Shown here: positions 7,562 through 40,429 of the stretch, one piece after another
Numbering within the stretch: the stretch's first letter is position 1
Layout: every line of letters starts with the position of its first letter
Assembly: GCA_019873645.1 (NCBI GenBank)
Contig: JAIOAX010000010.1
Span: 19,728-83,727 of the forward strand
From: Chloroflexota bacterium
GTDB taxonomy: Bacteria > Chloroflexota > Anaerolineae > B4-G1 > SLSP01
Length of the DNA stretch: 64,000 bases
Direction of reading: 5' to 3'
Made by a program: the position numbers and the translations under genes
Notes under the pieces: generated by a model
What the model saw: the letters and a program-made list of their open reading frames with translations, nothing else
Databases searched by the model: none
What the model was told of the DNA's origin: nothing

Positions 7562-9391
7562 ATGGACAAACCCTGGTACATCCTCTTTGATCGTTCGACA
7601 ACTGCAATTGTCTACGGCATGCAAACGGCCGCCGTGCAGCGCATGCTGGATTTCGATTACCTGTGCCGCCGCACGACGCCTTCGGTGGCGGCCATCGTCA
7701 ACCCGACAGGCGAGCCGGGGATTCACCGTCCGTTCTTCGGCAGCCGCGAAGTGATGATCCCCATCTACACCACGCTCGCCGAGGCAGCCGCCGCGCACCC
7801 GGAGGCGGACGTGATGATCAACTTTGCCAGCTTCCGCTCCGCTTTTGCTTCGACGATGGAGGCGCTGGCCCTGCCGAACATTCGCACCATCGCCGTCATT
7901 GCCGAGGGCGTGCCGGAGCGTCAATCACGCATCATGGCGGCGAAGGCGCGCCAACTGGGCAAGGTCATCATCGGCCCGGCGACGGTCGGCGGGTTGGCGG
8001 CGGGCGCGTTCAAGATCGGTAACACCGGCGGGCCTCCGGATAACATCATCGAAGCGAAACTTCATCGCCCCGGCAGCGTGGGGTATGTGGGCAAGAGCGG
8101 CGGCCTCACCAACGAGACCTTCAACATTGTCGCGCGCAACGCCGACGGCATTTACGAGGGCATCGCCATCGGCGGCGACGCCTATCCGGGTTCGCGCCTG
8201 ATTGACCACCTGTTGCGTTATGAGGCCAATCCCGACATCAAAATGCTCGTCTGTCTGGGTGAGCTAGGCGGCAACGAGGAATACGCCATCGTGGACGCGC
8301 TCAAGGATGGGCGCATCACCAAACCGTTGGTCATTTGGGTGACAGGCACCTGCGCCAAAGTCTTCCCCACGAGCGTGCAATTCGGACACGCGGGCGCGAA
8401 GGCCGGCGGCGCGGCGGAAACCGCCGACGCGAAGAATGCCGCGCTGCGCGAGGCCGGCGCGATTGTGCCGGATTCCTTCGACACCTTTGGCGACAAAATC
8501 CGCGAGGTTTACGAAAAGTTGCGGGCGGAAGGCAAAATCACGCCTATCGAGGAGCCAACGCCGCCTCCGATGCCGATGGATTACGCGACGGCCGTGCGTC
8601 AGGGGCTGATCCGCAAGCCCACCAACTTCATCTCCACCATCTCCGACGACCGCGGCGAAGAGCTAACCTACAACAAGATTCCCATCACCGAAGTCATCGC
8701 GCGCGAGATGGGGATCGGCGGCGTCATCGGGCTCCTGTGGTTCAAGCGCGAGCTGCCCGAATATGCCCGCCGTTTCATCGAGCTGACCCTGGTGATCGTG
8801 GCCGATCACGGGCCGGCGGTCAGCGCGGCGCACAACGCGATCGTGGCCGCGCGCGCCGGCAAGGACCTCATCTCCTCGCTGGTGAGCGGCCTGTTGACCG
8901 TTGGCCCGCGCTTTGGCGGCGCGATTGACGACGCTGCCCGCACCTTCAAGCGCGCTTTCGACCAGGGGATGACGCCGCAGCAGTTTGTGGATGATATGAA
9001 GGCCAAAGGCATCCTCATCCCCGGCATCGGCCACCGCATCAAGAGCGTGCAGAACCCGGATATGCGCGTCACCATCGTCAAGGAGTTCGCCAGGAGCCAC
9101 TTCACCGCGACGCCGCTGCTGGATTTTGCGCTGGAAGTTGAGAAGATCACTACGGCCAAGCGCAACAATCTGATCCTCAACGTGGACGGCTGTATCGGCA
9201 TCTGCCTGGTGGATATGTTGAGCAGTTGCGGCTTCACCCCGGCCGAAGTCAACGATATGGTTGAACTGGGCTACTTCAACGGCATCTTCGTCCTGGGGCG
9301 CAGCATCGGCGTGATGGGGCACTACTTCGATCAAGTGCGACTCAAGCAGCCGCTCTATCGCCATCCGTGGGACGATATTTTGTATTTGTGA
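7562..9391 (+). CDS. aclA: ATP-citrate lyase, alpha subunit
   Basis: [40 protein letters not shown] (phospho-His), [21 protein letters not shown] and LYRHPWDDI motifs. Confidence 0.93.
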
Positions 9392-16055: not shown

Positions 16056-16555
16056 TGTGCACCTCTTTGATAAGGGATTAGGGACTGGGGATTGGTGAAG
16101 ATGTCATCGTTGTTGGATTCCCACTCATAAATCGAGGACATTTCTCGGAGTCTGCCGCCGGGCAATTCTCCACCCCGTTTATTTCGCTTGAGATAGGCGA
16201 CATAACCATTCAGGGTACGATGGGCAACTTCTATCAACGCTACTCCTTCGTCGTAAATAGAGCGTGGGATATAGTTCAAATCAAATGCTGTGACAAGGTG
16301 GTTGTAAGTCTCTACTAGAGAGCCACGCGCGATATAGCAAAATCGTATCGTCTCCTGGTAATAAAATCGGCCATACCCTTCCGCTGTGTTTGCCATTACG
16401 CTCTTTGATGCCCGCCGTATTTGCAAACTCAGGTCCCATTTTTCATCAGCAGGCAGAGCGGGGATAATCTGCTTGTGAACAAAAATCATTATTTCTCGCG
16501 CCTTTTGCCATGCCACAAGTGTGTCTAACCCCCGGTGAATTTCTTCTGTTTCCAT
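16052..16555 (-). CDS. Four-helix-bundle protein (23S rRNA IVP/bAvd-like family)
   Basis: L.AWQKA...LP.DEKWDL..QIRRASKSVMAN.AEGYGR...F.YIARGSL.E motif. Confidence 0.88.
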   Translation of the reverse strand: METEEIHRGLDTLVAWQKAREIMIFVHKQIIPALPADEKWDLSLQIRRASKSVMANTAEGYGRFYYQETIRFCYIARGSLVETYNHLVTAFDLNYIPRSIYDEGVALIEVAHRTLNGYVAYLKRNKRGGELPGGRLREMSSIYEWESNNDDIFTNPQSLIPYQRGAQ

Positions 16556-16599
16556 CGCCTTGTCCCCCTCCCTAATTCCCAATCCCTAATCCCTGACTA

Positions 16600-17757: not shown

Positions 17758-18050
17758 TCAAACAAAACGCTCCCGTCCCTTGCCAGGACGAGAGCGCGTG
17801 ACTCCCGTGGTACCACCTCGCTTGCCCTGTAGGTACAGGGCCTCTTTTTTCCACAGCCATGATGAACGTGCACCTGGCGATGGATAGCCCTCATAACGCT
17901 GGGCATGCGGAGCCGCCTACTGGGGATGACCTGTTCAGCGGTCGGCTCAGGGGCGAACTTCGGCAGGTTTTCGCTGGACGGAACTTTCAGTCTATGGTTC
18001 CATCTCCCTGGCAGTTTGCGCCTGCTTACTTTTCCCCGTCACTGCCTTTA
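17758..18050 (-). promoter_or_regulatory. T-box riboswitch (Phe specifier) with terminator
   Basis: Minus strand: AGTA, AGGGGAG and GACTGAAAG boxes; specifier GAAG-UUC (Phe); T-box AGGTGGTACCACG; terminator CGCTCTCGTCC...GGGACGGGAGCGTTTTGTTT before pheS. Confidence 0.9.
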
Positions 18051-18078
18051 TTTATTTAGGACAGACTACAGTAACCTT

Positions 18079-18106
18079 ATTATCACCAGGAGGGCCAAAT
18101 TGTCAA
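18079..18106 (-). promoter_or_regulatory. Sigma70-like promoter for the pheST leader
   Basis: TTGACA-16nt-GATAAT on the minus strand just upstream of the T-box. The -35 overlaps the response regulator stop codon. Confidence 0.55.
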
Positions 18107-18483
18107 GCCTGCGATGGCTCTCGCGGTGTTCCCATACGTTCGGCCATCATACGGAGCTGCACGAAGCTGATTGGCTTAAGTAGGATGAGATCCGCCTCGC
18201 TGTGGAGCATATCGGCCATACCGGCGTCGGCCGTGGCCACAATGACACGGGTACGTTCAAGCCGTGTATCACCACGAATTTGCGTCAGCAACTGATCGCC
18301 GTCCACATGCGGGAGGTTGAGGTCCAGGACGACCACATCGGGACAGACTTCGTTGAGCCGTCGGCGGGCGACGGCGCCATCGTAGATGATTTCGGTTTGA
18401 AAGCTGGCGGCTTTGAGCGCCTCGGAGAAAATCGTCGCCAGATCCTCATCGTCCTCGATAATCAAAGCAAATTTTTTACTCAT
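18103..18483 (-). CDS. Single-domain response regulator (CheY-like)
   Basis: ALIIEDD, VLDLNLP (phospho-Asp), TA and KP motifs. Start overlaps the kinase 3' end. Confidence 0.9.
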   Translation of the reverse strand: MSKKFALIIEDDEDLATIFSEALKAASFQTEIIYDGAVARRRLNEVCPDVVVLDLNLPHVDGDQLLTQIRGDTRLERTRVIVATADAGMADMLHSEADLILLKPISFVQLRMMAERMGTPREPSQA

Positions 18484-19873
18484 GGTGTACCTCTCCCTTA
18501 GCCTGGTTAGTGTTTTTTTGCGGTGGGACAATCGGAATCTTCACCGTGAACGTGCTGCCGGCCCCGAGTTCGCTGACGACGCTCACGCTCCCCCCCATAA
18601 GTGTAGCCAATTGCTTGACAATGGAAAGTCCCAGTCCAAAACCGGTATGTTCCCGCGTTGACGACGTATCGGCTTGCCAGAAAGGCTCGAAGATGGAGGT
18701 CTGCGCCTCTTTAGGAATGCCCGGTCCGGTATCAGTCACGTCAAAGGCCCAATAATCGGTATCAGGACAGTAAAAATGGATGCTAATGCCGCCTTTTTCG
18801 GTGAATTTCATTGCGTTATTGACGAGGTTGACGAGAATCTGATACAAGCGTCTGCGGTCGCCTTCCAAAACAGCCGGCACCGCGGGCGAGGCGTGAACCT
18901 TAAGGAACAGTTTCTTTGTTTCCACCAGTATGCGCATGGTAGATTCCAGATCGTCAACCAGGTCCTGGATGGTAAACGGCTCGATGTGCAAAGAAATCTG
19001 GCCGGCCTCGATGCGCGCCTGATCCAGCAAGTCATTGACGAGATCGAGCAGGCGTTTGTCGTTGGTGGCAATGCGCTCCAGAGCGGCGTCTTGCCTGGAG
19101 GTAATCATCCCGTAGTTGCCGCTGCGCATGATTTCGGTGAATCCCAGAATGGCGTTGAGCGGTGTGCGCAGCTCGTGGGAGACAATGGAGAGGAAGCGTG
19201 ACTTGAGCCGATCCAGCTCCTGGAGTTTTTGGTAGGCGCGGGTCAGTTGTTCGTTGGCCTGTTGTAGTTCATGGGTGCGCTGCTCTACACGTGCCTCCAG
19301 TTCCACGTTGAACGCACGCACCTCGGCCAGCGCCCCTTCCAGGCTGCGCGTCGAGAGCCAGGCGACGAAGGCGATGGTGAAGAAGCCCAGGATGGTGGGG
19401 ACGGGGGGCGCTCCTTGAGCATAATCCGGCAAAGTGAGCATAGCAATAATGCTTATTACAACACCGCATACGCCCGCCGCCACAAAACTGGCCCACGGCC
19501 GCAGGATAACGCTGGACATCAGGATGGGGATGGTGAAGAGGAACAGCGCACGGCCTTCGACGACCTGGCGGGGTGCATCGGCAAAGGCGAAGGCACCCGT
19601 TAGCAGTAACACAAACGCTGAACTAGCTATCCAGCCGGACCAACGGCGATTGATAAGAAAAATAATAAGTATGCTTGCTAGCAGCCCGAGAATAACAGGC
19701 ACGAGTCTCTTTACATCTTCTAAGATAGCTAATCCCAGAAAGAAAGCAATTATAATACCAAATAATGTGAGTAATAGTAACGAGGCTGTTCCAAACAGGA
19801 GTATATTCAGCATTTGGCGACGGCGAATGTCTTCTGGATCTGTAGTAGAAACCGCTAATAGTTCAGCTAACAT
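18476..19873 (-). CDS. Membrane-bound sensor histidine kinase (multi-TM input domain, HisKA, HATPase)
   Basis: About six hydrophobic segments in the first ~180 aa, then a coiled coil, SHELRTPLNAI, NLVNNAMKF, DTGPGI and GFGLGL. Confidence 0.93.
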   Translation of the reverse strand: MLAELLAVSTTDPEDIRRRQMLNILLFGTASLLLLTLFGIIIAFFLGLAILEDVKRLVPVILGLLASILIIFLINRRWSGWIASSAFVLLLTGAFAFADAPRQVVEGRALFLFTIPILMSSVILRPWASFVAAGVCGVVISIIAMLTLPDYAQGAPPVPTILGFFTIAFVAWLSTRSLEGALAEVRAFNVELEARVEQRTHELQQANEQLTRAYQKLQELDRLKSRFLSIVSHELRTPLNAILGFTEIMRSGNYGMITSRQDAALERIATNDKRLLDLVNDLLDQARIEAGQISLHIEPFTIQDLVDDLESTMRILVETKKLFLKVHASPAVPAVLEGDRRRLYQILVNLVNNAMKFTEKGGISIHFYCPDTDYWAFDVTDTGPGIPKEAQTSIFEPFWQADTSSTREHTGFGLGLSIVKQLATLMGGSVSVVSELGAGSTFTVKIPIVPPQKNTNQAKGEVHHE

Positions 19874-21352
19874 TTATAATATACTTTCTGCTAAAGTGAG
19901 AGCGCTTAAAATTGCAGATCGAACGACTAATTCTGGACAATATAGACATTTACCGATCCAGAGCGGGGGATAGGGAAGATCCAAATGGTGTATTAACCAC
20001 TCTTGTCCTCGTTGAAGTACACTCTTATCAATGTAATTTTGGTGAGACCGCGACCAAAGTGTCAGAGCTTGCATACAATAAGCTGTTTCCTCAGCCGTGG
20101 GTGAATAATATCCCCAGGCCCCATCAGTGTCTTGGGTTGATAGAATCCAATCAATTGCCGAATTTGCCATTACAGAATCATAATTCATACATATTATTGC
20201 GGCATGGCTGGTTGTATAATATGGGGAAACATGCCACTTATCAAACCAAAAAGCTTCTTTTATTCTGGATTTGTTTAAAAAGAGCAATAGTTTCTTTACT
20301 GTCTCATGGGATGTCTTAAAATTAGCTCGTTGCAATGCGCCTAGAATGTGAATATTTGCACTAATAGAGGGGTTTGATTCTAGATCAAAGCAGCGGAAGT
20401 AAAAGGGCTTTTCATAAGAAAGGAGTGCCTCGGAGTCTACACAACGACCATAGTAGCTTAATACATCATAGACGATGCTAGTCTCGTCTCCATCCTTTGG
20501 AATGTAGTTTTGCGCAAAACCTGCTCCTATACCAGGCATCCAGCTTTGTTCTAGAAAGTCGAGATGAGTTTGGCAGAGATCTATTACTTCATTGTCTAGA
20601 AGATTTATGTTCCACTTTAAGTTCCATAATATCCATGCCGGTTCAAAAACATCAAATGGATATACATTAGGCGCGGTACCTGTGGAAGCGACTCTGTGCA
20701 GGTAATTCAAAGCTGCCAGATCACCCCGACGCACATACAAAGCATAGTAGGCCGTAGCCGAGGGGCTGTAACTGATAGAACCATCGTATTCTTGTAGATT
20801 ATCTATATCCAGTAACTTTTTTCCATCACTGCCGGCCATTTCTGCAGAAAATGCCATCGTTACAGACCGATTGATCATGCCGTTAGGCAATAAAGCTAAC
20901 TTGGCCGACCTGAGTGGGGCTAAGGATTTTAACACCTCTGTATTATCGTGATGGATGGCCCCCAAAGCCCGCGCCTCGTGAAGTAAAGTGGGGACAAGTA
21001 GCTCGAAGCCAATGGTTGCACCTGCCGGATCCTCTTGCAAATGCGGGGTCAGCATTTCCAGGGCGGCTTCTGCTGCCTCCAGGCGTTCGCGGTCGCTGCG
21101 TAGACCGCGCCTGGCCAGGGCGTTGATGGCCGCCAGGGTGCAAATCACGCGATCATGGTAGTAAAGCGGTTGTGCCGCGCCCCACGAACCGTCCGGCAAT
21201 TGATGCTCCCGCAACCATTGCAACGCCAGTTCTCCAATCGGTTCGCCGATCTCTACCAGACGCGCTATCCAGGCGGTATCGTAGGCCGTGGGCATCATTT
21301 TCCCCGGTCCGGCCTCTTGAAGGAGTTTGACCCATTCTGCGTGTAAATCCAT
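19874..21352 (-). CDS. Class II diterpene cyclase (copalyl/halimadienyl/kolavenyl-PP synthase type; Rv3377c/Haur_2145-like)
   Basis: TAYDTAWIAR, QW motifs QLPDGSWG and QDTDGAWG, D.....TLA, IGFEL, SPSATA, DGDET (DxDD-type acid motif), DKWHVSPYY, EETAY, LWIGK.LY.P. Confidence 0.9.
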   Translation of the reverse strand: MDLHAEWVKLLQEAGPGKMMPTAYDTAWIARLVEIGEPIGELALQWLREHQLPDGSWGAAQPLYYHDRVICTLAAINALARRGLRSDRERLEAAEAALEMLTPHLQEDPAGATIGFELLVPTLLHEARALGAIHHDNTEVLKSLAPLRSAKLALLPNGMINRSVTMAFSAEMAGSDGKKLLDIDNLQEYDGSISYSPSATAYYALYVRRGDLAALNYLHRVASTGTAPNVYPFDVFEPAWILWNLKWNINLLDNEVIDLCQTHLDFLEQSWMPGIGAGFAQNYIPKDGDETSIVYDVLSYYGRCVDSEALLSYEKPFYFRCFDLESNPSISANIHILGALQRANFKTSHETVKKLLLFLNKSRIKEAFWFDKWHVSPYYTTSHAAIICMNYDSVMANSAIDWILSTQDTDGAWGYYSPTAEETAYCMQALTLWSRSHQNYIDKSVLQRGQEWLIHHLDLPYPPLWIGKCLYCPELVVRSAILSALTLAESIL

Positions 21353-21411
21353 AGCTAATCAGGTTTTCCTGGACTTAAAAATATTTTCGGGAGGACTTGT
21401 TTTTGTATTTG

Positions 21412-21457
21412 ACCGGCTGAAGCCGGTGTGCACATGTGCGCACCGGCTTCAGCCGGT
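21412..21457. repeat. Nested palindrome upstream of the cyclase gene
   Basis: ACCGGCTGAAGCCGGTG-TGCACATGTGCG-CACCGGCTTCAGCCGGT. Confidence 0.7.
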
Positions 21458-21708
21458 TTTTTCCCCAGACACTCTCAATTTCACATTCATCCATGCCCAC
21501 AAAGGTCTAGTACACGGGGGCGGAAATGACTTCCCCGTTAAATTCTTCTCCCATCGCTCAAAGGGGAACGCCAGTTCCCCGTGCGGTCTTCGACGCGCCC
21601 ATTATGTCCGCCGCATAGCATCAGTGCTCGACATAACACCTCAAAACCGCAGATCTGACGATCCGCTTCAAGCCTCGCTAACCAACATGGAATTTTTGCC
21701 ATGATGGA

Positions 21709-22629
21709 CTAGACTACATTTGGAGACTGAATCTGAGCCTTAGGATACCAGACGCCTTTATACATTGTCCCGATACCCAGAATGTTTTCTGCATTCGTTT
21801 GGTAAAAGGCGCGCATTGCGGCCCAATCCGCCGGGGTCATTTCACTGTAATCGCTTTCTTCTTTGGGACGGGCGTACAGGTGGTCAAAAAGGATGGTGCG
21901 CAATTGTCGCGTATCCAGATATAACGAAGGGGCGACCGTGAAGTACAAGTCTTCGTTGCCCGTCGAAACCAGCGGCATATCGAAAGCGGTGAACTTATCA
22001 AACCCGATGAAAAAATCCACCGGCGTGACATACTCGCCATAGTAAGCTTCAACAATCTCGCGTTTGTTCGGCAAGCGACCATACGTCTGGTGAAACTGTG
22101 CGCCGATGGCCGCCACGGTTTCCGCCGCATCGTGAGCACACACGCCGAAGAAAAGCCGGTAGCGATTGTGTGAAGCCGTCCGTTGTTCAACGGCTTGAAA
22201 ATCGCGGATAAAACCGGCGTAAGGCGTTCCTTCAAAGTAACGCCGGTAATCACCGTACACGCGCACCCGCACATCGTAAGCCGCATAGAAATCCAGGAAG
22301 TCTTGCCCCCGCGCGAACCAGGATAACCCATCGCGGATCAAGGCGTCGTACTCCTCTCCGCGTTCTAAAATATCCGGGCCGAAAACCGGCGTCAGCAAGG
22401 TATCTATGCCGTGGTCAAAAAACAATTTATAGACTTCGACATGGCAACGCCCGGCAATATCCAGATAGGCTCTGACAAAATTTTCGGCAACCGCTTCAGG
22501 ATATTCCAGGATTAACCACCGCCGCGTTCCGTTGATCGGGAACACGCACACCTTCGGTCCGGCGGCGCGCACGATGCGCGCCACCTCCTCGGTGGGCAAG
22601 TTCAAAAAGGTCTCCAGGTCCATCTTCAT
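21709..22629 (-). CDS. Rv3378c/Haur_2146-like diterpenyl transferase/synthase (cis-prenyltransferase-like fold)
   Basis: FLNLPTEEVARIVRAAGPKVCVFPINGTRRW closely resembles recalled Rv3378c FLDLP..VAEIVR..GPKV.VFPFDGTRRW. Also FDHGIDT, RG..Y, VRVYGDY, LFFGV, YYGEYV, DLYF and LR.IL.DH. Start overlaps the GT87 stop (ATGA); alternative ATG at 22623. Confidence 0.85.
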   Translation of the reverse strand: MKMDLETFLNLPTEEVARIVRAAGPKVCVFPINGTRRWLILEYPEAVAENFVRAYLDIAGRCHVEVYKLFFDHGIDTLLTPVFGPDILERGEEYDALIRDGLSWFARGQDFLDFYAAYDVRVRVYGDYRRYFEGTPYAGFIRDFQAVEQRTASHNRYRLFFGVCAHDAAETVAAIGAQFHQTYGRLPNKREIVEAYYGEYVTPVDFFIGFDKFTAFDMPLVSTGNEDLYFTVAPSLYLDTRQLRTILFDHLYARPKEESDYSEMTPADWAAMRAFYQTNAENILGIGTMYKGVWYPKAQIQSPNVV

Positions 22630-23987
22630 GCTCCTGTGAGATGCCGGGCCGGCGCAGCGCGCCATAGACGCGCCAGCAAAACGGCGTACAGCATCAAAAT
22701 GGTTGCCATAATCAAAGGGAAATAAATGGCCGGATCGGTAGCGACGTAAGGGCCGGGCAAGATAATGTCCATTCCGCCGAAGATAAGGCTGCCTACCCGC
22801 CAGGGGTCCAGCAAGGCATAGGGAAGAAATGCCAGGTGTATCCACATTTTTCCTACTTGTGAAGATGTTGTCCCTAACAAATAAGGATAAAGCGCGACCC
22901 CCAGACACAATTCCCACACCATATCCAGCCAGATAAAAGCACCTAAGTACAGAATAAATGCGAAATCAAGGCCCAGTTGTGGCTTCTGGTCGCCACGTTG
23001 ATTGACCGGATAAAGAAGATGGCGCAAACAAACCACTCCCAGGGGAATCAAAAGCAGTATTTTAACCACGGTCGCCAGGTGTAATGTCTGCTGCGATACA
23101 CCGAGTCGGTAAACGACGATTTGTTTGATAGAATGATTATATCCCAAAAATGCCTTGTCCGGCCCGCGCCAGGGAAAATCTCGACTGAGTCGCCCCAGGA
23201 AAGCCACATAATCGCGGTATTGCCCCCACCCGTAAGCCGGCCCGACGACCAGAATGGTCATGCCGGTGATGACAATATAAACAAGCACCGTCAGCGCCAG
23301 CAATTGAAAGAAAAAACGCCGTCGTCCGAGCAAGAGAGGCACGGCCGCGGCGAAAGTCCAATGGGGTTTGATCTGGAGGATGATCGAGAGCCACAAGAGC
23401 GACCATCCCAGGTGTTCTGTCAGAATGGCTTCGATCAACAATGTGGCCAATAAGGCCATGATGATATAGATATTCAGGTAGCCCAGATCCGTCCAAAAAG
23501 ATGAAAAGAGCAACCACACCGGCAACACCCAGGCTAACATCCTAAGTGCGCGAGGAAGATTGAGGCGTTTGAAAATTCGTCCCCACATGATGTACATAAT
23601 CCCATAGGCGATGATGTGCAACAGAGTATGGACTACCGACGCGCCTACAGGGGATAGCCACGAAAAAGGTACGAAGGCCAGAGCGAAGGAAGGGGCATAA
23701 GGATAGTGATCTTCAAGCCGCGCCAGTGAGCCTTTCAGATACAAGTCTTGCCTGGCGCGCAGATGTTTGGCCGCATTGAGATAAATCTGCAGATCGGCCG
23801 GCACCACCGGCCCTTCCACATCTACCCATGCCGGCACACCCCCCAGGATTTTGGCTTCGGGGAACAGCATCATCGCCAAAACCACCCCCTGCACCACCAA
23901 CCGCAGCAAGGTATACACCGCCGCCGCGGTCAGCAACACGCGGTAGGTTCTGGAGCTGCGCCAGAGTTGCTTGATCTCGGAACCCAT
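22626..23987 (-). CDS. GT87/DUF2029-like membrane glycosyltransferase (GT-C fold)
   Basis: Polytopic. ADLQIYLNAA...LY...YPYAP.FAL.F.P, N, IKP and NHSI patterns are typical of GT87. Confidence 0.72.
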   Translation of the reverse strand: MGSEIKQLWRSSRTYRVLLTAAAVYTLLRLVVQGVVLAMMLFPEAKILGGVPAWVDVEGPVVPADLQIYLNAAKHLRARQDLYLKGSLARLEDHYPYAPSFALAFVPFSWLSPVGASVVHTLLHIIAYGIMYIMWGRIFKRLNLPRALRMLAWVLPVWLLFSSFWTDLGYLNIYIIMALLATLLIEAILTEHLGWSLLWLSIILQIKPHWTFAAAVPLLLGRRRFFFQLLALTVLVYIVITGMTILVVGPAYGWGQYRDYVAFLGRLSRDFPWRGPDKAFLGYNHSIKQIVVYRLGVSQQTLHLATVVKILLLIPLGVVCLRHLLYPVNQRGDQKPQLGLDFAFILYLGAFIWLDMVWELCLGVALYPYLLGTTSSQVGKMWIHLAFLPYALLDPWRVGSLIFGGMDIILPGPYVATDPAIYFPLIMATILMLYAVLLARLWRAAPARHLTGA

Positions 23988-23990
23988 AGC

Positions 23991-24533
23991 TTACATCAAC
24001 AACAGGTAACTGTAATCAATCGCGCTGATGAGCAGCGTCATAAACAAGGCCAGCAAGGCGGCGTTCAGCAAGGCCGTGCGCAACGGCTTGTCCTTCTGCT
24101 GCCGTAACGCACGCATTAACAAGGCGCCCACGAGGCCCAACGCCAGGCCGTGCAGGACTACGCCGATCCACGGGGCATTGCCCGCGGCTGCGCCTTGCGC
24201 CAGTGCCAACCCCACGCCCGTCAGCCCGCCGAAAAGGGCATCTATCTTCCGGTTGCTCCAGCGGCTTTCGGTGGCCAGGTAGGCGGCAAAGAGCACCTGC
24301 AAAATTCCAAAGGTCACAATGTTCACCACCGTGACCGCCCACGGCTCGTGGTAGCCGCTGATGAGCGGTTCGGTGTAGCGGATGAGCAACGAGCCTGCCA
24401 CGGCGCTGACGAGGCTGCACAGTACCGCGTCACGACGTCGGCCTCTGGCCCACAGCCATACTGCCGCCACGAATAAGATCAGCACGGGCGCGTTCTGGAC
24501 GAATTCCCAGAAGATGGCGTTGATGAATATCAT
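23991..24533 (-). CDS. Hypothetical multi-pass membrane protein
   Basis: 180 aa with ~6 hydrophobic segments, tightly packed in the operon. Confidence 0.75.
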   Translation of the reverse strand: MIFINAIFWEFVQNAPVLILFVAAVWLWARGRRRDAVLCSLVSAVAGSLLIRYTEPLISGYHEPWAVTVVNIVTFGILQVLFAAYLATESRWSNRKIDALFGGLTGVGLALAQGAAAGNAPWIGVVLHGLALGLVGALLMRALRQQKDKPLRTALLNAALLALFMTLLISAIDYSYLLLM

Positions 24534-24535
24534 CT

Positions 24536-26863
24536 CTATTCTCCCCGCAGGACCTGGACGATGGGAATCCGCGCTGCCCGCTTCCCCGGCAGATAGCTCC
24601 CCGCGACGCTGACGATGACCATCAGCACAGGGATCGCTGCAACGTATAAGCCATTCAGCGTTGTCTCCACTGCGCCGAATCCGTAAGTTTTCGAAAGCGC
24701 GGCCAATACGCTGTTAGTGAATCCCCATCCTAACGGCAACCCTGTCAAGGCCGCTAAAAATCCCAGGAAACCGGCCGCTGTGTTGACCATCAGCACAACC
24801 TGTCGGGGCGTGAAGCCGAGCGTCTTGAGCACACCGATCACGCGCAGCTTCTCCTGGACAGCTAACAGCGAGGTATTAAACACACTAACCAATGCTATAC
24901 CTATTAGAATACCGGATAATGCAAAAAGTGCAAGTTGCAGGTAGACCACGACGCCAGGAATGGCCTGCCCGGCGAAGGTTAGATTCAGGTCGGATTCCGG
25001 TTTGGGTTCGATATAACGCTTTAACAGCGCCGTGTCGGTATGCGGCGCGAGCTTCAGGTAGTAGACGGCCGGGCTTTCCCCTGGCAACAATCGCGCCAGC
25101 GTGGAGAAATTCGCCATGGCCATCTGCCCGGTGTTGACCGGCTCTGTATACGCGCCGACGATGCGCCAGGTGACGGGGCGGTTGCGGCGGCCATCCACAA
25201 TGACCGTCAACTCGTCGCCGACACGCAAGCCCAACCAATCTAACAATCCCTGCCCGGCCATCACCTCGTCGGTGTCTGGACGGATCAGCCGTCCTTCCAG
25301 GATTCTGAAGGGGAAGGAGGAAAGCTCGCCATCCACCGCGCGCACTTGAAAGCTCTCTCCCGTCGGCGTTTCGACGTCCACGCGGTATTCGCCGTAGAAG
25401 GCTGTCACGCCGGGCGCACGTTCCAGGAGATGGCGCACTTTGCTATCTGGCGTTATGCCGCGCGTGACGATGGCATCGTAGGCGATGCCCAACAGGTGCG
25501 GGTTGGCCTTGTAGGTTTCCAGCGTCTCGTTCAACGTCAACCCGAAGACGATGCCGACGACGCCGATCAACAGGTTCAGGCCGGTGCTCAACGAACGGAA
25601 CGGCCGGGCAAAGACATCGCTTAAGCCCAACACAAAGGGGATCGAGAAGCCCAGGCGTGCCGCCAGCCGCGGCAGCCAGAATTCCTTCTTGGCCGGGGCC
25701 TCCGCGCCGGTGGCGATGGCTTTGACGATGTTGGCTTGCGCCGCCCGCCGCGCCGAGCGCCACGCAGCCGCTGCGATGATCGTCGGGATGATGCCCAGCA
25801 CCAGCATAACGATCAGGGGGTTGAACGGCGGGCGGAAAGTGGTGCTCAACGCCGAGGCGACATTCCGCAGGGGCAGGGGCGAGAGCAGCAAACCGAGCAC
25901 CAGACCGATGGGGCAGCCGATCAGCCCCAAGACCAGGTATTGCCCCAGGTAGAGCCAGAGGATTTGCGCTTTGGTGAAACCTACGGCCTTGAGGATGCCC
26001 ACTTGCCGGAATTGCGACAGGACAAACGCGCTGATGCCGCTGACGATAACCAGCACCGTCGCCAGGATTGCGAACAGGCTGAAGGCGCCCAACAGGATGA
26101 AGTTGAGCCGCGCGCCGAAGTTGGCCGAACGCTTCACATCCCGCCAATCTGTGTGATTGCGCACGGCGTCGGGCTGGAGCAGTGCCTCGATCTGCGTCAG
26201 AACCTCGGTCACGGCTTCGGGGTCCGCCAGGCGCAGCCCCAGCGACCATTCCCAGGCGGTGGAATCGGGATACAGCTCCCGAAAGAGGCTTTGACTGACG
26301 TAGAGATAGGGTGGTTGGGTGTTGCGATAGGTGTCCCAGGTGGGGTTGTAGGCCAGTCCGATGACCGGCAAGCTGACTTTTTTGCCGTCTTGCCGGGTGA
26401 CGCCGATGCTGTCGCCGACTGCCAGCCCGTACAGGTCCGCCAGGTCGCGGCTGGCAAGCACTTCAGCTTGCCGGGGAAGCAGGTAGCGGCCCGCTTGCAC
26501 CAGCAGGCGGTTCACCCGCGGCGGTTGCAACGGCGTGTCGCGGATGCTCACCCAGACCCGCGTATCGCCGATTGACACCCGTGCTGTGACACTGTACTGG
26601 AGGCCGGTGCTGTCTGTCACTTCCGGCAGCGCTTCGAGGCGGGCGATGTCCCGGCGGGTGACTTTGGCGCGGTCGAAATACAACCACAGATGCGCGCCAT
26701 TCAGCGTGGCAAAGGAACGGTCGTAGGGCGCGCTGAGGTTGAGCAGTGTTGCCAGCGCCAGGGTCAGCAACATCGTCGCCGAGACAATCGTCATCAGTGT
26801 CAGGAGCGAGATGAACGGCCTTCCGACGACATCAGCTTTGAGTTTCTGCCAGATGGCTAACAT
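24536..26863 (-). CDS. ABC exporter permease, FtsX/MacB type (two repeats)
   Basis: Two GILKAVGFT / GVLKTLGFT FtsX motifs, each with a large extracytoplasmic domain. Confidence 0.9.
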   Translation of the reverse strand: MLAIWQKLKADVVGRPFISLLTLMTIVSATMLLTLALATLLNLSAPYDRSFATLNGAHLWLYFDRAKVTRRDIARLEALPEVTDSTGLQYSVTARVSIGDTRVWVSIRDTPLQPPRVNRLLVQAGRYLLPRQAEVLASRDLADLYGLAVGDSIGVTRQDGKKVSLPVIGLAYNPTWDTYRNTQPPYLYVSQSLFRELYPDSTAWEWSLGLRLADPEAVTEVLTQIEALLQPDAVRNHTDWRDVKRSANFGARLNFILLGAFSLFAILATVLVIVSGISAFVLSQFRQVGILKAVGFTKAQILWLYLGQYLVLGLIGCPIGLVLGLLLSPLPLRNVASALSTTFRPPFNPLIVMLVLGIIPTIIAAAAWRSARRAAQANIVKAIATGAEAPAKKEFWLPRLAARLGFSIPFVLGLSDVFARPFRSLSTGLNLLIGVVGIVFGLTLNETLETYKANPHLLGIAYDAIVTRGITPDSKVRHLLERAPGVTAFYGEYRVDVETPTGESFQVRAVDGELSSFPFRILEGRLIRPDTDEVMAGQGLLDWLGLRVGDELTVIVDGRRNRPVTWRIVGAYTEPVNTGQMAMANFSTLARLLPGESPAVYYLKLAPHTDTALLKRYIEPKPESDLNLTFAGQAIPGVVVYLQLALFALSGILIGIALVSVFNTSLLAVQEKLRVIGVLKTLGFTPRQVVLMVNTAAGFLGFLAALTGLPLGWGFTNSVLAALSKTYGFGAVETTLNGLYVAAIPVLMVIVSVAGSYLPGKRAARIPIVQVLRGE

Positions 26864-26866
26864 AGT

Positions 26867-26943
26867 GAATCAAGAATCAGCGAATGAGCGAATCAGCGAA
26901 TGAGCGAATCAGCGAATGAGCGAATCCCCCAATCCCCAATCCC
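26867..26943. repeat. Octamer tandem repeat (AGCGAATG/AGCGAATC) plus AATCCCC heptamers
   Basis: GAATCAGCGAATGAGCGAATCAGCGAATGAGCGAATC... Confidence 0.8.
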
Positions 26944-27677
26944 TACGTTTCGGTCAGGGTGATCATGAATTGGGCGATGCGCTGCACGTCCACGCCCGGC
27001 ATTTCTTCGACCAGCCGCCCATCGCGGATGAAGATGACGTGCTTGGCTTGCGCGGCGGCCGACGCGTCGTGCGTCACCATCAAAATTGTCTGCCCCTGCG
27101 CGTTACATTCACGCAAGATGTGCAGCACTTCCTGCCCGCTTTTGCTGTCCAGGTTACCCGTAGGTTCGTCGGCCAGCAGGAGCGTGGGCTGGTTGATCAG
27201 CGCCCGTGCGATGGCAACCCGCTGCTGTTGTCCGCCCGAAAGTTCCCACGGATGTTTGCGCGCTTGATCCAGAATCCCCAGGCGTTCCATCAACGCATTG
27301 GCCCGCTGCCGCACGGCTTTGCGCTCTCGTCCGCTCTGTAACAGCGCCGGCAACTCGATGTTGGCCTGGACCGTCAGGTTGTCAATCAGATTGAAGAACT
27401 GGAAGATAAAGCCGATGTGCGTGCGGCGGAATTTTGCCAGCGCCGTTTCGTTCATGGCGCTCAGGACGGCGTCCCGGACTTCGATCCGTCCGGCGGAGGG
27501 GCGATCCAGCCCCCCCAGCAGGTGCAGCAGGGTGGATTTTCCACTGCCCGACGGTCCCATCACCGCGACAAAATCACCTTCGGCCAGCTCCAGCGAGACA
27601 CCGCGCAAGGCGGTGAAGGCGACCGCGCCGGTTTTGTAGATTTTCTCGACGTTGACAAGCCTGACCAGCGCCGTCAT
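26943..27677 (-). CDS. ABC transporter ATP-binding protein (LolD/MacB type)
   Basis: GPSGSGKST, FIFQFFNL, LSGGQQQRVAIARAL, LLADEPTGNLDS. Confidence 0.93.
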   Translation of the reverse strand: MTALVRLVNVEKIYKTGAVAFTALRGVSLELAEGDFVAVMGPSGSGKSTLLHLLGGLDRPSAGRIEVRDAVLSAMNETALAKFRRTHIGFIFQFFNLIDNLTVQANIELPALLQSGRERKAVRQRANALMERLGILDQARKHPWELSGGQQQRVAIARALINQPTLLLADEPTGNLDSKSGQEVLHILRECNAQGQTILMVTHDASAAAQAKHVIFIRDGRLVEEMPGVDVQRIAQFMITLTET

Positions 27678-28474
27678 ACCTGCGTATAGCACGTGCGGGT
27701 GAAATAAGTCTTGAAGCCGGCGATGCGCAGGAAACGCTCGAAGGGCGCGCCGGCCGTCGTCTGCAACAGGGCGCGCCGGCAGCCCCAGGCATAAGCGTCG
27801 GCATAGACCTTGGCCGTCAGCCCGCTGAGCACTTTCAGCCCGCGCAGTCTGGAGATAATGCCTGCGCTTCCCACAATTGCCAGGTCTTCATGGCAGAGCA
27901 GAGTGCACACCCCTAGCGGTTGCCCGTCGAACGTCGCCACGTAGTGAAACATCCCCGGCAGACCGATGGAAGGCGTAAGCACCTCGGCCAGCGCTTCGGC
28001 GTACTCTTCCGGCATCCCAAAGGCTTTCAGGAAGACCTGTGCAAAGGTCGGCGCTTCGCTTTTGTCAATACTATGCACTTCCACGCGCGCGGGTACGGCC
28101 GATTGCACCAGGTCTTCCGGGCGTTCCAGGACCATCCAGGCTTCCTGTTCCTTTTGGCGGATGAAGCCCGCCTGCTCCAATTGGCGGGGCAAGTCTTCCG
28201 GCGTGCATGCCGGTGAAAGAAAGACCGTCGGTGGCAGTTCGCGTGAGGTGAAGTGTTCCATGATCTCGGCAATCAAATCCTGGGCCGTCTCGCGTGTGGC
28301 CCGCAACAGACAGGCGTGATTGACATCCGGTGTGGGGAAAATCTGACTGCTGGTGATGATCATATCATCCCGCAGGATCAACTCCACGCCCGGCGTTGCG
28401 GCAACCATCGGTTGCATCGCCACATAGTTTTGCCGTTCGAGAGCCGCCATTGCTTCAACCGTCACTTTTGTCAT
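27674..28474 (-). CDS. GNAT-fold acetyltransferase-like protein
   Basis: C-terminal GNAT-like pattern (YVA..DGQPLG..TL...LAIV...RG...LQT......GF). The acetyl-CoA motif is only partly conserved. Confidence 0.55.
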   Translation of the reverse strand: MTKVTVEAMAALERQNYVAMQPMVAATPGVELILRDDMIITSSQIFPTPDVNHACLLRATRETAQDLIAEIMEHFTSRELPPTVFLSPACTPEDLPRQLEQAGFIRQKEQEAWMVLERPEDLVQSAVPARVEVHSIDKSEAPTFAQVFLKAFGMPEEYAEALAEVLTPSIGLPGMFHYVATFDGQPLGVCTLLCHEDLAIVGSAGIISRLRGLKVLSGLTAKVYADAYAWGCRRALLQTTAGAPFERFLRIAGFKTYFTRTCYTQV

Positions 28475-28496
28475 ACCACATCTCCTTGTTCCAATT

Positions 28497-28537
28497 CTGC
28501 GGTGGCGCGGTCAAAGACCGGCCACAGCGAGAGATCT
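28497..28537. repeat. REP-like element, family R, copy 1
   Basis: GTGGCGCGGTCAAAGACCGGCCACAGC; related copies at 36453-36520, 40128-40206 and 50398-50493. Confidence 0.65.
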
Positions 28538-28572
28538 TCAGTGGCGCAGGCCGTACAAGAGTGGTTAAAGTA

Positions 28573-29415
28573 TTATTGCCGAGAGGCTACCAACCGCCCA
28601 TATCCTGCGAGGACCGACGCCACGATGGTACAGCTCAACAACATAGTATCTGCGGTGTGGCGCGTAAGCCCATCGGCAACGAACAATCCCATGCTCAACA
28701 GCGCAGCCATGACCGGCAAGCGTTCCGGCAGCGTCGTGGAGGGTGCGGCGCGCGGCGCGAACGTTGCCATTGCGGGAGGCCAGAGCGCATACACCGCCGC
28801 CGCGCCGGTTCCCACGTCCGACAACGACCAGAACCATCCGGCCAGCAGCGACGATGCCTCGAACACCTCCGAACGCACTCTGAAGTTGATCCAGTTTGCC
28901 AGGGTATAGGCGACTAGGGCGAGCATGAGTCCATGTAGGGTGACTCGCATGCGGGGATCGGCGGTATACGTTAGCGCTACCCAGGTCACATACAGCAGCG
29001 CGATGTCCATAATCGGGTATAACGCGCCGCCGAAGAAGAACAGCACGGGCTGCGCAATGGCCGCCATAACCGGTCGGAAAAGCGCCACCCAAATCACCGC
29101 CGTCGCCGCCGCCAGGAGCGCGCCGTAGGCCGCCCAACCGGCTTGCTGGGCGCGGCGGGGGTGACGCCAGAACGCCCCAAATAGCAGCCCGTAGCGGGCG
29201 ATGTAAAAGGCATCAATCAAACTGAAAACGGCCAAAGTCTTGCCGGTCACATAGTCGTGGATGCCCCAGGCGACGTTGCCGGCAATGCCCAGCGTCCAGG
29301 CCCAGGCCAGCAGCCGCCAAAAAGTACGGGCGTCGGCCGCAGAATGATATGCTGCCCACCATAGCACGCCGGCCACAAGGAGGGAGACGAGAAAAGCCGC
29401 GACAAAGCCCAACAT
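28573..29415 (-). CDS. Multi-pass membrane protein resembling membrane sensor input domains, with no output domain
   Basis: FWRLLA.AW...GN..W..D....S..DAFY..RY.LL and LYP..D..L patterns recall the N-terminal membrane regions of DGCs and kinases. Confidence 0.6.
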   Translation of the reverse strand: MLGFVAAFLVSLLVAGVLWWAAYHSAADARTFWRLLAWAWTLGIAGNVAWGIHDYVTGKTLAVFSLIDAFYIARYGLLFGAFWRHPRRAQQAGWAAYGALLAAATAVIWVALFRPVMAAIAQPVLFFFGGALYPIMDIALLYVTWVALTYTADPRMRVTLHGLMLALVAYTLANWINFRVRSEVFEASSLLAGWFWSLSDVGTGAAAVYALWPPAMATFAPRAAPSTTLPERLPVMAALLSMGLFVADGLTRHTADTMLLSCTIVASVLAGYGRLVASRQ

Positions 29416-29416
29416 C

Positions 29417-30772
29417 TTATTTTACTGGAGCCTCCTTCGTGCCGGATTTGCCCCGGAAAGGATAGCGCAGGAAGATGAAGAAAGCCGCCAGGAGCATCAC
29501 GCCGCCGACCACGCCGATGAGGCGCACGCCGAGCGGGCCATGGGGATCGCTGTGGCTGCGTCCCAACAACAACAGCAACGGCAGAAACGCCGCCACCACG
29601 CCGTTGATGACCTGATCCAGCAGGCCCCACATCGCGTAATACAGTCCCTCGCGGCGTTGCCCGGTCAACATGGCGTCGTGGTCGGCGATCTCGGCGCCGA
29701 AGGCCATCGGCAGCATGGTGACACCGGACAGCGCGGCGGCTTGCAGCGTCACCCAGGCAATTCCCTGCGCCATCAAAGGCAACGGCAGCCAATCGCCGAT
29801 GAGCATCAGGCCGGGCAGCACAATGGCTGACGCCAGCAGCGAACCGGCGAACACCTTCCACTTGCCTACGCGTCCTGCCAGCCATGTGACCAGAGGATAG
29901 CAGAGCAGCGAACCCAGGATCGCGGGGACGTAAAACCACAACATATCGCCCTCGCTCAGCAGACAGATCTCGGTGACGATGTAGGGGAGCGCCGATTGCA
30001 CCAGTGAGGTCAACCCCCAATAGAACAGACCTGCCGCCGTCATCACGACGAAGGCGCGGTTTTGCAGCAACGATTTGACAATCGCGCGCAGGTTGCGGCG
30101 CGGCAACGCGCCTTCCGCCGACGTTTGCCAGCGCTCCGGGCGTTCGCGCAACACCAGGAAGGGCAAGTAGAGCAACGGAAGCGCCGCGAACGCGTAGATA
30201 AGCATCGCGCCAACGTATCCCCGCCGTTCAATGAGCATCCCCGCCGCGCCGCTGAAGATCATCCCCAACAGCATAAAGCTGGAGGCCCAGGCAGACATCC
30301 GCACGCGATGCCGATCGGTCAGGGCAAGTTCCGGCAGCAGGGCGGTGTAGGGAATCTGATTTGTCGTATACGCCAGGTTGTACAGCACCAGCACTATTCC
30401 CAGGTACACGAGATTCCACGCCGAGAGGGTGCGCAACGGCGGCGTCCACAGCAGGACGAAGAGCGCGAGCATCGGCAGGCCGGAGGCGAACATCAGCGGC
30501 AGGCGGCGGCCCCAGCGTGTGCGCAGGTTATCCGATAGGTGCCCGATGAACGGTGACAGGACGGCGTTGAGCGCGCGCGTTCCCAGCACGACCACTCCGT
30601 ACCATGCCGCCGGTACAAGGGCATTTCTTTCTCCCGCCGGCGGCAGATAGAAGTAGAGCAGCCAACTGCCGAGAATGCTCCACAGCATAGCACTGGCCAG
30701 CGTGATCAGCGCGTAAGTCACGTCTATTTTCAAGGATGGTTGTGGCGTGTCGGTTGCCGTGGTTGTGGACAT
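29417..30772 (-). CDS. MFS transporter, GPH/MelB-like
   Basis: PFIGHLSD..RTRWGRRLP, PYTALLPEL, D...TGQRREG motifs; ~12 TM segments. Confidence 0.88.
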   Translation of the reverse strand: MSTTTATDTPQPSLKIDVTYALITLASAMLWSILGSWLLYFYLPPAGERNALVPAAWYGVVVLGTRALNAVLSPFIGHLSDNLRTRWGRRLPLMFASGLPMLALFVLLWTPPLRTLSAWNLVYLGIVLVLYNLAYTTNQIPYTALLPELALTDRHRVRMSAWASSFMLLGMIFSGAAGMLIERRGYVGAMLIYAFAALPLLYLPFLVLRERPERWQTSAEGALPRRNLRAIVKSLLQNRAFVVMTAAGLFYWGLTSLVQSALPYIVTEICLLSEGDMLWFYVPAILGSLLCYPLVTWLAGRVGKWKVFAGSLLASAIVLPGLMLIGDWLPLPLMAQGIAWVTLQAAALSGVTMLPMAFGAEIADHDAMLTGQRREGLYYAMWGLLDQVINGVVAAFLPLLLLLGRSHSDPHGPLGVRLIGVVGGVMLLAAFFIFLRYPFRGKSGTKEAPVK

Positions 30773-33902: not shown

Positions 33903-34018
33903 GGATTGAGGGCACTGATTTGTAGTATGATTGGCGCGCCGGCCAACGGCGGGAACGGCGTGGCGCGTGGGATAGGGCGGCTAAACTTTTGAGACGTTGT
34001 GGAGAAAATCGAATAATT

Positions 34019-40334: not shown

Positions 40335-40408
40335 CCATTCGCCGATTCTTTGATTCGCCGATTCGCCGATTCTTAGATTCGCTGATTCTTAGATTCGCTG
40401 ATTCTTTG
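40335..40408. repeat. Octamer tandem repeat (ATTCGCCG/ATTCTTAG)
   Basis: ATTCGCCGATTCTTTGATTCGCCGATTCGCCGATTCTTAG... Confidence 0.75.
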
Positions 40409-40429
40409 ATATTCACAGAGGAGGTTATC

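Follow-up and report, generated by a model that had tools for sequence, protein, structure and literature searches.

The class II diterpene cyclase Rv3377c and the diterpenyl transferase Rv3378c form an enzyme pair known almost only from Mycobacterium tuberculosis, where its product, 1-tuberculosinyladenosine (1-TbAd), helps the bacterium to resist the macrophage. A related gene set is reportedly present in Herpetosiphon aurantiacus, where Haur_2145-2147, said to have been studied by Nakano in 2015, would constitute an O-methylkolavelool cluster with a class II cyclase, an Rv3378c homologue and a methyltransferase. In the portion of PMC3470408 that deals with the mycobacterial operon, the latter consists of five isoprenoid genes without regulators, and the corresponding portion of a 2024 study reports the locus as minimally regulated (PMC11476799). 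The sections of that study devoted to origins state that orthologue searches outside mycobacteria failed, and propose a plasmid donor from plant-associated bacteria on nucleotide composition alone (PMC11476799). Here we analyze a 64,000-nucleotide stretch of a Chloroflexota bacterium contig (JAIOAX010000010.1, positions 19,728 to 83,727; hereafter the window), in which homologues of both enzymes are followed immediately by a sensor histidine kinase and a stand-alone receiver. An earlier sequence-only reading of this DNA had proposed a synthase-exporter-receptor layout for a diterpenoid signal and was aware of no such system having been described; our search of the full-text literature likewise retrieved nothing linking Rv3377c/Rv3378c-type enzymes to a kinase or to Chloroflexota. 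Comparison of the window with related loci gives good support to the view that a membrane sensor kinase is dedicated, and functionally coupled, to the diterpenoid-lipid pathway.

The two enzyme genes are arranged as in Rv3378c-Rv3377c, transferase then cyclase, and the products are full-length homologues of the mycobacterial proteins, which bears out the kinship proposed for both in the sequence-only reading. The transferase (21709..22629, minus strand; 306 aa, or 304 aa from the ATG at 22623) matches the Rv3378c structures 3wqk, 3wqn and 4kt8 of the Protein Data Bank (PDB) with E-values of about 3e-74 over residues 4-293 of the 303-aa query. The cyclase (19874..21352, minus strand; 492 aa) matches the solved Rv3377c structure (6vpt_A) with an E-value of 7.5e-130 between query residues 12-489 and chain residues 9-497, a full-length homology of the beta-gamma cyclase type, and also the Pfam family SQHop_cyclase_C (3.3e-13). 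The alignments to Rv3377c and Rv3378c are roughly half identical by eye, an estimate and not a computed percentage. The relevant part of PMC3470408 places isoprenoid-supply genes and no two-component system at the M. tuberculosis locus, whereas in the window the cyclase gene is succeeded by those of a kinase and a receiver, and genes for GT87, GNAT-like, MFS and MacB proteins lie ahead of the transferase. The cyclase stop codon directly adjoins the kinase start (19874/19873), a 0-bp junction already noticed in the sequence-only reading and verified from both coordinates and sequence. The kinase (18476..19873, minus strand; 465 aa) carries Pfam HisKA (3.5e-18) and HATPase_c (2.7e-30) domains, and its stop codon is overlapped by 8 nt by the start of the receiver (18103..18483, minus strand; 126 aa), in which Pfam Response_reg (1.5e-16) is the only domain. 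The receiver most likely starts at the ATG at 18483, located behind a GGGAGAGG motif, and not at the TTG at 18531 that had been favored before. On the 3' side of the receiver there is a strong promoter-like site and then the T-box leader of pheS, and therefore the unit ends at the receiver. Ahead of this leader, which lies at 17781-18106 upstream of pheS (Rfam, 97.2 bits), the promoter-like site reads TTGACA-16-GATAAT, close to the consensus, and overlaps with the stop codon of the receiver.

A genome scan with the window's transferase yielded 270 confirmed loci, and the analysis was carried out on the best 80 of these (L001-L080), all from Chloroflexota and derived from 78 genomes of five classes (Anaerolineae, Chloroflexia, Thermoflexia, Ardenticatenia and Caldilineae). 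Gene content was assigned by BLASTP of all open reading frames (ORFs) of each locus against the window proteins, and a hidden Markov model (HMM) of the sensor was built from the first 185 residues of the kinase. A cyclase gene follows that of the transferase in 69 of the 80 loci, and a same-strand kinase gene lies within 400 bp in 49 of the 54 loci that have a cyclase and at least 1 kb of further downstream sequence; in a fiftieth locus (L072), an insertion sequence with an rve integrase sits between cyclase and kinase. The sensor HMM recognized 59 ORFs, the window's own and 58 more distributed over 55 of the 80 loci; every one belongs to a cluster or lies next to one, and none of five other kinases encoded in the locus flanks was matched. 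Measured from the transferase, the sensor kinase was found within 6 kb in 54 of the 58 loci whose downstream sequence extends to 3 kb or more, in 53 of them on the transferase strand, 22 of the 80 loci ending too early for its presence to be scored; the gene arrangement is thus beyond chance. Of the 49 loci with a linked cyclase and kinase, 38 have separate receivers (some with two to four in tandem) and six have hybrid kinases with fused receivers, four being cut by contig ends and one (L002) having no receiver. Kinase and receiver are conserved beside cyclase homologues, so that this refuting condition of the sequence-only reading was put to the test and did not hold, and the conserved core consists of transferase, cyclase, kinase and receiver.

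The kinase is retained even where the enzymes next to it are exchanged. The position of the cyclase is taken by a geranylgeranyl-reductase-like flavoprotein in L034 (9878-11080) and L051 (2304-3566) and by an S-adenosylmethionine (SAM)-dependent methyltransferase in L054 (4517-5422), and the sensor kinase still follows in all three. The proteins P0195, P0230 and P0234 each carry a membrane methyltransferase domain of the ICMT/PEMT type, joined in frame ahead of the N-terminus of the sensor kinase, and in P0057 a domain of the same type is fused to the N-terminus of the transferase, any of which may be an artefact of assembly or gene calling. One metagenome-assembled genome (isolate Zod_Metabat.1307) encodes three transferase-cyclase clusters (L002, L029 and L063), each with its own sensor kinase; a receiver is present in L029 and L063 and absent from L002, and one of the clusters has an additional B12-radical-SAM gene. 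Judged from these cyclase replacements, methyltransferase fusions and the three-cluster genome, the kinase link follows the lipid pathway rather than any single enzyme.

The product expected of an Rv3377c-type cyclase is halimadienyl (tuberculosinyl) diphosphate, and the general acid of class II cyclases is the central Asp of a DxDD-type motif. In the cyclase of the window this motif reads D287-G-D289-E and aligns to D-C-D-T of the M. tuberculosis enzyme, with D289 invariant and D287 nearly so across 31 clade B cyclase sequences. The transferase, on the other hand, has I-N-G-T-R-R-W where its mycobacterial counterpart has F-D-G-T-R-R-W, Asn thus replacing an Asp that we take to be the counterpart of the catalytic Asp of cis-prenyltransferases. 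With adenosine as acceptor an Rv3378c-type enzyme makes a terpene nucleoside; given this replacement, a nucleoside-linked compound is just one of the products that the enzyme of the window may make. All 25 of the 25 homologues gathered with HMMER have this Asn, which argues for a functional variant and not for decay; it is also present in 80 of the 80 loci, a count biased by the fact that one of the two scan patterns contained NGTRRW. The transferase has 2500 homologous protein clusters at E<=1e-5; among the 120 matches listed, all those with a named source belong to Anaerolineae or Chloroflexi, and some database relatives bear the labels 'tuberculosinol/isotuberculosinol synthase' or 'adenosine tuberculosinyltransferase', given by similarity only. 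None of the 16 + 30 ORFs scanned in the window was recognized as a polyprenyl (geranylgeranyl diphosphate) synthase.

The kinase is composed of a six-helix membrane domain (approximately residues 1-185), a signalling helix, HisKA and HATPase_c. AlphaFold predicts six helices connected by loops of at most about 11 residues, helix 6 leading straight into HisKA (predicted local distance difference test score 86.2 for the whole protein and 92.9 for the domain), in agreement with the purely membrane-embedded input of about six transmembrane helices that had been proposed from the sequence. All 49 downstream kinases have some six hydrophobic helices within their N-terminal ~185 residues, and the phospho-accepting H233 is invariant in 58 kinase sequences. 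Conserved sensor motifs are DPxDARRRxLLN before helix 1, NRY after helix 2, D-x-P-x-x-V-x-x-G-R between helices 3 and 4, RP-x-ASF after helix 4, and SWLSARSLE leading into the signalling helix; from the topology imposed by a cytoplasmic kinase domain, the loop between helices 3 and 4, with D99, P101, G107 and R108 among its conserved residues, would lie on the outer face of the membrane. No Pfam or NCBIfam model covers residues 1 to ~167, models such as LuxQ or TorS matching only the signalling helix and the kinase core, from residue ~168 onwards; a TM_PetC stretch at residues 15-46 remained below the Pfam threshold (24.7 bits against a cut-off of 37.1). A profile of the sensor searched against 1.84 billion representative proteins retrieved 1114 at E<=1e-3, of which 266 at E<=1e-30. 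The domain is nearly always N-terminal in these proteins, with nothing, PAS, PAS/GAF arrays, or one or two fused receivers coming after it.

The sensor resembles several described membrane inputs in architecture. Like the receptors of the CqsA/CqsS, LuxM/LuxN and AgrBD/AgrC systems, it is a membrane-only multi-helix domain joined directly to the kinase core, with synthase genes adjacent, and CqsS is described with six helices in the pertinent part of PMC4821796. It differs from CqsS, LuxN and AgrC in sharing no Pfam or NCBIfam family with them, as judged by family models rather than by direct sequence comparison, in that the regulator here is only a receiver, and in that the lipid would be a diterpenoid, a class that we have not seen described for such receptors. 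MASE-type domains and the membrane anchors of adenylyl and diguanylate cyclases are likewise six-helix bundle inputs, with ligands that are lipids or not known. In a feature-based atlas search, the neighbors of the sensor were unnamed Chloroflexota clusters and then clusters partly carrying MASE2, MASE6, MASE7, MASE8 and MASE11 at scores of 0.93-0.95, which we treat as leads only. No Pfam MASE model matched the sensor, and a fold search with the sensor alone gave no match at E<=0.001; the best one was the six-helix anchor of the diguanylate cyclase ImcA (8wcn_A; probability 0.97, TM-score 0.54, E-value 0.36), and those of human adenylyl cyclases 5 and 8 also appeared. With the whole kinase as query, the fold search returned kinase cores only. 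These data define an undescribed six-helix sensor domain, for which a lipid is the candidate ligand.

The inheritance of the genes was analyzed from cyclase clades, codon composition and identity between neighboring genomes. There are three cyclase clades, with motifs that differ between loci (DGDTT vs DGDDT), and the cyclase of the window belongs to clade B, the one nearest to Rv3377c (437 bits for the window and 490 for L071, versus 226 for a clade A cyclase). The block from GT87 to the receiver has, in the window, L001, L004 and L009, a GC content at third codon positions (GC3) of 0.38-0.66, compared to 0.72-0.80 in the MFS/MacB and pheST genes that flank it, a difference not found in L012 or L027. 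The cyclase has the lowest GC3 of the block (0.38-0.49; 0.44 in the window, with ~0.77 in its flanks). This composition suggests that the five-gene block from GT87 to the receiver (18103-23987) was acquired as one island, in this lineage only. Between the window and its closest relative, L001, nucleotide identity falls to 73.1% in the cyclase-kinase segment and 71.9% in the receiver, versus 84-88% in most of the flanks and 79.7% in the gene of a membrane protein, p280, further upstream; the sensor part of the kinase is 77% identical, compared to 71% for the whole kinase. Synteny, the replacements and fusions, GC3 and this drop in identity together tie kinase and receiver to the prenyl-lipid enzymes, and not to the host flanks or to the exporter.

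We propose that transferase, cyclase, kinase and receiver form a pathway-dedicated two-component module that monitors its own lipid or the state of the membrane, a proposal that we regard as evenly poised between right and wrong. Geranylgeranyl diphosphate would be cyclised by the class II cyclase, and the bicyclic diterpenyl group would be transferred by the Rv3378c-like enzyme to its acceptor; in the window, the product would be further decorated by the GT87 and GNAT-like proteins and then moved across or out of the membrane by the MFS and MacB-type ABC transporters. The six-helix domain would sense how much of the pathway's own lipid is present, or how this lipid alters the bilayer, and the kinase would phosphorylate the stand-alone receiver, which would act through protein contact and not through DNA binding. 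Together these steps would give a self-contained circuit for monitoring a membrane diterpenoid or for feedback on it. What the sequences show is the gene content, the homologies, the tight junctions, the synteny, an intact H-box and receiver pocket, and the topology of the sensor; the product, the ligand, and the direction and target of the output are inferred. Binding of the product by the kinase, and its export as a signal, are purely conjectural.

Several observations weigh against this proposal, or against its extension to a full synthase-exporter-receptor system. Among the 33 kinase-bearing loci with at least 8 kb of upstream sequence, MacB is encoded in 15, GT87 in 18, MFS_2 in 12 and the GNAT-like protein in 11, so the exporter lies outside the conserved core, contrary to the place it had been given in the sequence-only reading (MacB 15/33, MFS_2 12/33). 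The regulator is a receiver and nothing else in the window, in 32 related regulators (~118-135 aa) and in the five longest ORFs; across 33 sequences E10, D11, D54 and K103 are invariant, and T84 is nearly so. With neither an output domain in the receiver nor a conserved target gene after it in the related loci, the regulatory loop cannot be closed. As the regulator is free of an output domain in every locus examined, a simple loop from receptor to transcription, as in AgrC/AgrA, does not apply here. The label of the cyclase clade changes seven times on the sensor tree versus four on the transferase tree, and consequently there is no sign of extra tracking of the diterpene skeleton by the sensor; supported branches force at least two of the seven changes, while 23 of the sensor tree's 45 inner branches are unresolved, and on both trees the changes are far fewer than with shuffled labels, as expected for linked genes. 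The lack of any sign of co-diversification weakens the case for a skeleton-specific receptor and leaves the sensing of a shared head group, or of an effect on the bilayer, untouched. The kinase is missing from four loci with room for it (L018, L043, L047 and L069), the sensor family of 1114 proteins exceeds the kinases that were placed in context and includes long PAS/GAF kinases whose neighborhoods were not seen, and the comparison covers the best 80 of the 270 loci. Finally, with Asn at the position of the mycobacterial Asp in xDGTRRW, the chemistry of the transferase may differ from that of Rv3378c. Of the synthase-exporter-receptor idea, therefore, enzyme homology, kinase linkage and the membrane sensor stand, whereas the exporter as part of the core, a simple route to transcription and tracking of the cyclase clade are weakened or unsupported.

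These data bear differently on the other explanations of the locus. The proposal that the diterpenoid is released and builds up in the surroundings, where the six-helix kinase would sense it as an autoinducer, with variants of cyclase and tailoring enzymes acting as 'dialects', draws on the conserved layout of synthase beside receptor, on the export genes of the window, on the three clusters of one genome with a kinase each, on the joint divergence of cyclase, kinase and receiver between the window and L001, and on tailoring genes that vary by locus (B12-radical-SAM, sulfotransferase, ICMT, GT87). The sensor does not track the cyclase clade, that of L027, which has a clade B cyclase, nesting among clade A loci, for instance. 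Comparison of the window with L001 reveals no hypervariability in the sensor part (77% identity vs 71% for the whole kinase), unlike the agr specificity groups. The membrane-only six-helix sensor does follow the design of CqsS, according to our models and the part of PMC4821796 that describes the latter, but the exporter is missing from over half of the testable kinase-bearing loci (MacB in 15/33) and the output is a bare receiver, and we consider cell-to-cell signalling rather improbable. The wider version, in which cyclic diterpenoids would be dedicated signals of the Chloroflexota, with signal-plus-receptor cassettes relayed by bare receivers, dialects of cyclase and tailoring enzymes, several cassettes per genome, and the 1-TbAd genes of tuberculosis as a stripped descendant, seems quite doubtful to us. 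What the kinase senses could otherwise have nothing to do with the product (pH, damage to the membrane or an antimicrobial, for instance), and the kinase would then switch on a protective terpenoid response of the envelope. DesK and the membrane-only sensors of the Bce/Lia type read the state of the bilayer or envelope, the sensor sequence here is largely indifferent to cyclase clade, and the cytoplasmic PAS domain of most family members would add a second input. 1-TbAd itself is described as a lysosomotropic base that counters acidification in the passages of PMC11476799 dealing with its activity. A generic sensor, however, is not expected beside one biosynthetic pair in 54 of 58 loci, nor tripled together with three clusters, nor fused to a lipid methyltransferase, and a transcriptional response would need a DNA-binding regulator, of which none is encoded; stress sensing is to our judgement unlikely, if deserving of some weight.

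The presence of an FtsX/MacB-type transporter and a kinase without an extracytoplasmic domain in one row also recalls BceRS-BceAB, where the kinase is encoded near an FtsX-type ABC transporter, and would be compatible with a ligand-free kinase that reads the activity of the MacB-type transporter. The BceAB-S complex (8g3a_D) indeed appears at rank 43 among the structural matches of the whole kinase, though through the kinase core. Bce-type systems have a two-helix kinase, an OmpR-type regulator and an obligate pairing with a BceAB-type transporter. Here the kinase has six helices and not two, the regulator lacks the OmpR-type DNA-binding domain of BceR, the kinase adjoins the cyclase and not the transporter, and most related loci lack the transporter (MacB is encoded in 15 of the 33 testable); synteny and architecture lead us to discard flux sensing, to which we attach hardly any credence. 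Nor do we find it other than very improbable that kinase and receiver are mere co-transcribed passengers, or the enzymes inactive relics. The Asn in the transferase motif could be taken as a sign of decay, but this residue is invariant in 25/25 homologues, the acid motif of the cyclase and the catalytic residues of kinase and receiver are intact, the junctions indicate translational coupling, and the arrangement is conserved over 78 genomes of five classes.

Either way, the enzyme pair is common in environmental Chloroflexota (270 genome loci), in the same order as in M. tuberculosis and, among the best 80 loci, almost always with its own membrane sensor kinase. The enzyme family can thus be studied in organisms that are not pathogens, and there is a testable idea of what its lipids may do outside pathogenesis, namely that the cell monitors them or talks with them. 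No homologue of the transferase was found on the 72,556 plasmids of PLSDB. From the 270 confirmed loci, the shared gene order, the clade B cyclases with up to 490 bits against 6vpt, and the lack of a PLSDB homologue, Chloroflexota-like bacteria emerge as a candidate reservoir of the tuberculosis locus. If true, the signal-cassette proposal would mean that the 1-TbAd genes of tuberculosis descend from a signalling or membrane-monitoring module stripped of its receptor.

Upstream of the transferase, the row continues with seven genes, eleven ORFs in all lying in one orientation on the minus strand between 18103 and 30772, just as the sequence-only reading had counted them. It had also described many of the genes as overlapping or abutting: most junctions are tight indeed, but the row is not seamless, as a 356-bp spacer parts transferase from cyclase. 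Transferase and GT87 share an ATGA overlap, or are separated by 2 nt with the alternative ATG at 22623, and the other gaps are 3 nt (GT87/m180), 2 nt (m180/MacB), -19 nt (ABC/p266) and 1 nt (p280/MFS). The membrane glycosyltransferase (22626..23987, minus strand; 453 aa) belongs to the GT87 family of the GT-C type (Pfam GT87 1.4e-07; 31.9 bits against a cut-off of 25) and has no PDB sequence match below E 0.1; its family is present in 36 of the 80 loci, mostly directly upstream of the transferase. It is preceded by m180 (23991..24533, minus strand), a membrane protein of 180 aa with five hydrophobic peaks, no Pfam or NCBIfam match, and relatives in 18/80 loci. The putative ABC exporter comprises a 775-aa permease (24536..26863, minus strand) with two FtsX stretches (3.6e-29) and two MacB_PCD stretches (1.5e-15), whose family occurs in 30/80 loci, and an ATPase (26943..27692, minus strand; Pfam ABC_tran 5.5e-35) whose best NCBIfam similarity, below the cut-offs, is to MacB/LolD. 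The soluble 266-aa protein p266 (27674..28474, minus strand) had been called a GNAT protein. Language-model features favor this call, with a score of 0.97 to GNAT clusters and 10/10 of the best named matches in the atlas search, whereas profiles and structures lend it no support (no Pfam or NCBIfam match; no significant PDB sequence match, best E 0.027), and we keep it as a lead only. The family of p266 is present in 19/80 loci; its membership in the FemAB/GNAT-like family found in 28 other loci was rejected for lack of similarity (BLASTP E 7.6). The polytopic membrane protein p280 (28573..29415, minus strand; 280 aa, ~6 hydrophobic peaks) has no Pfam or NCBIfam match and homologues in few loci (family 18, four loci), and the first gene of the row (29417..30772, minus strand; 451 aa) encodes a transporter of the MFS_2 or glycoside-pentoside-hexuronide (GPH) type (Pfam MFS_2 2.3e-54; NCBIfam GPH 3.5e-37, under the family cut-off).

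Other loci have other tailoring genes. Besides the FemAB/GNAT-like family, an ICMT/PEMT methyltransferase gene lies upstream of the transferase in 13 of the 80, a likeness to the reported cluster of Herpetosiphon with its cyclase, Rv3378c homologue and methyltransferase, from which the window differs in having no ICMT gene. A B12-radical-SAM gene is inserted between transferase and cyclase in L009, L052, L065 and L069 (by Pfam) and in L029 and L035 (by clustering with L009), and L068 has a sulfotransferase gene.

The spacer between transferase and cyclase (21353..21708, minus strand) contains a perfect 20-bp hairpin at 21412-21457, whose T-run is on the plus strand only, and a Cys-rich ORF of 54 codons on the minus strand (21538-21702). 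Its RNA folds far better than shuffled sequences (z-score -6.06). The hairpin motif has no further copy in the window, and Rfam gave no match in the spacer, its only two matches in the window being the pheS T-box and a tRNA. L001 lacks the spacer and has a 48-bp gap between the two genes instead.

Elsewhere in the window, an ORF of the 23S-rRNA-intervening-sequence family (16052-16582; GC 0.475) is wedged between pheS and pheT, with a 4-nt overlap with the start of pheT, and is not found in L001. Further genes encode an ATP-citrate-lyase-like fusion of CoA-ligase and citrate-synthase (7562-9391), a LonC-like protease (33989-36478), a DUF11/PKD repeat protein of 1878 aa (40406-46042), and a KAP-NTPase fused to an FGE-sulfatase domain (58868-60928).

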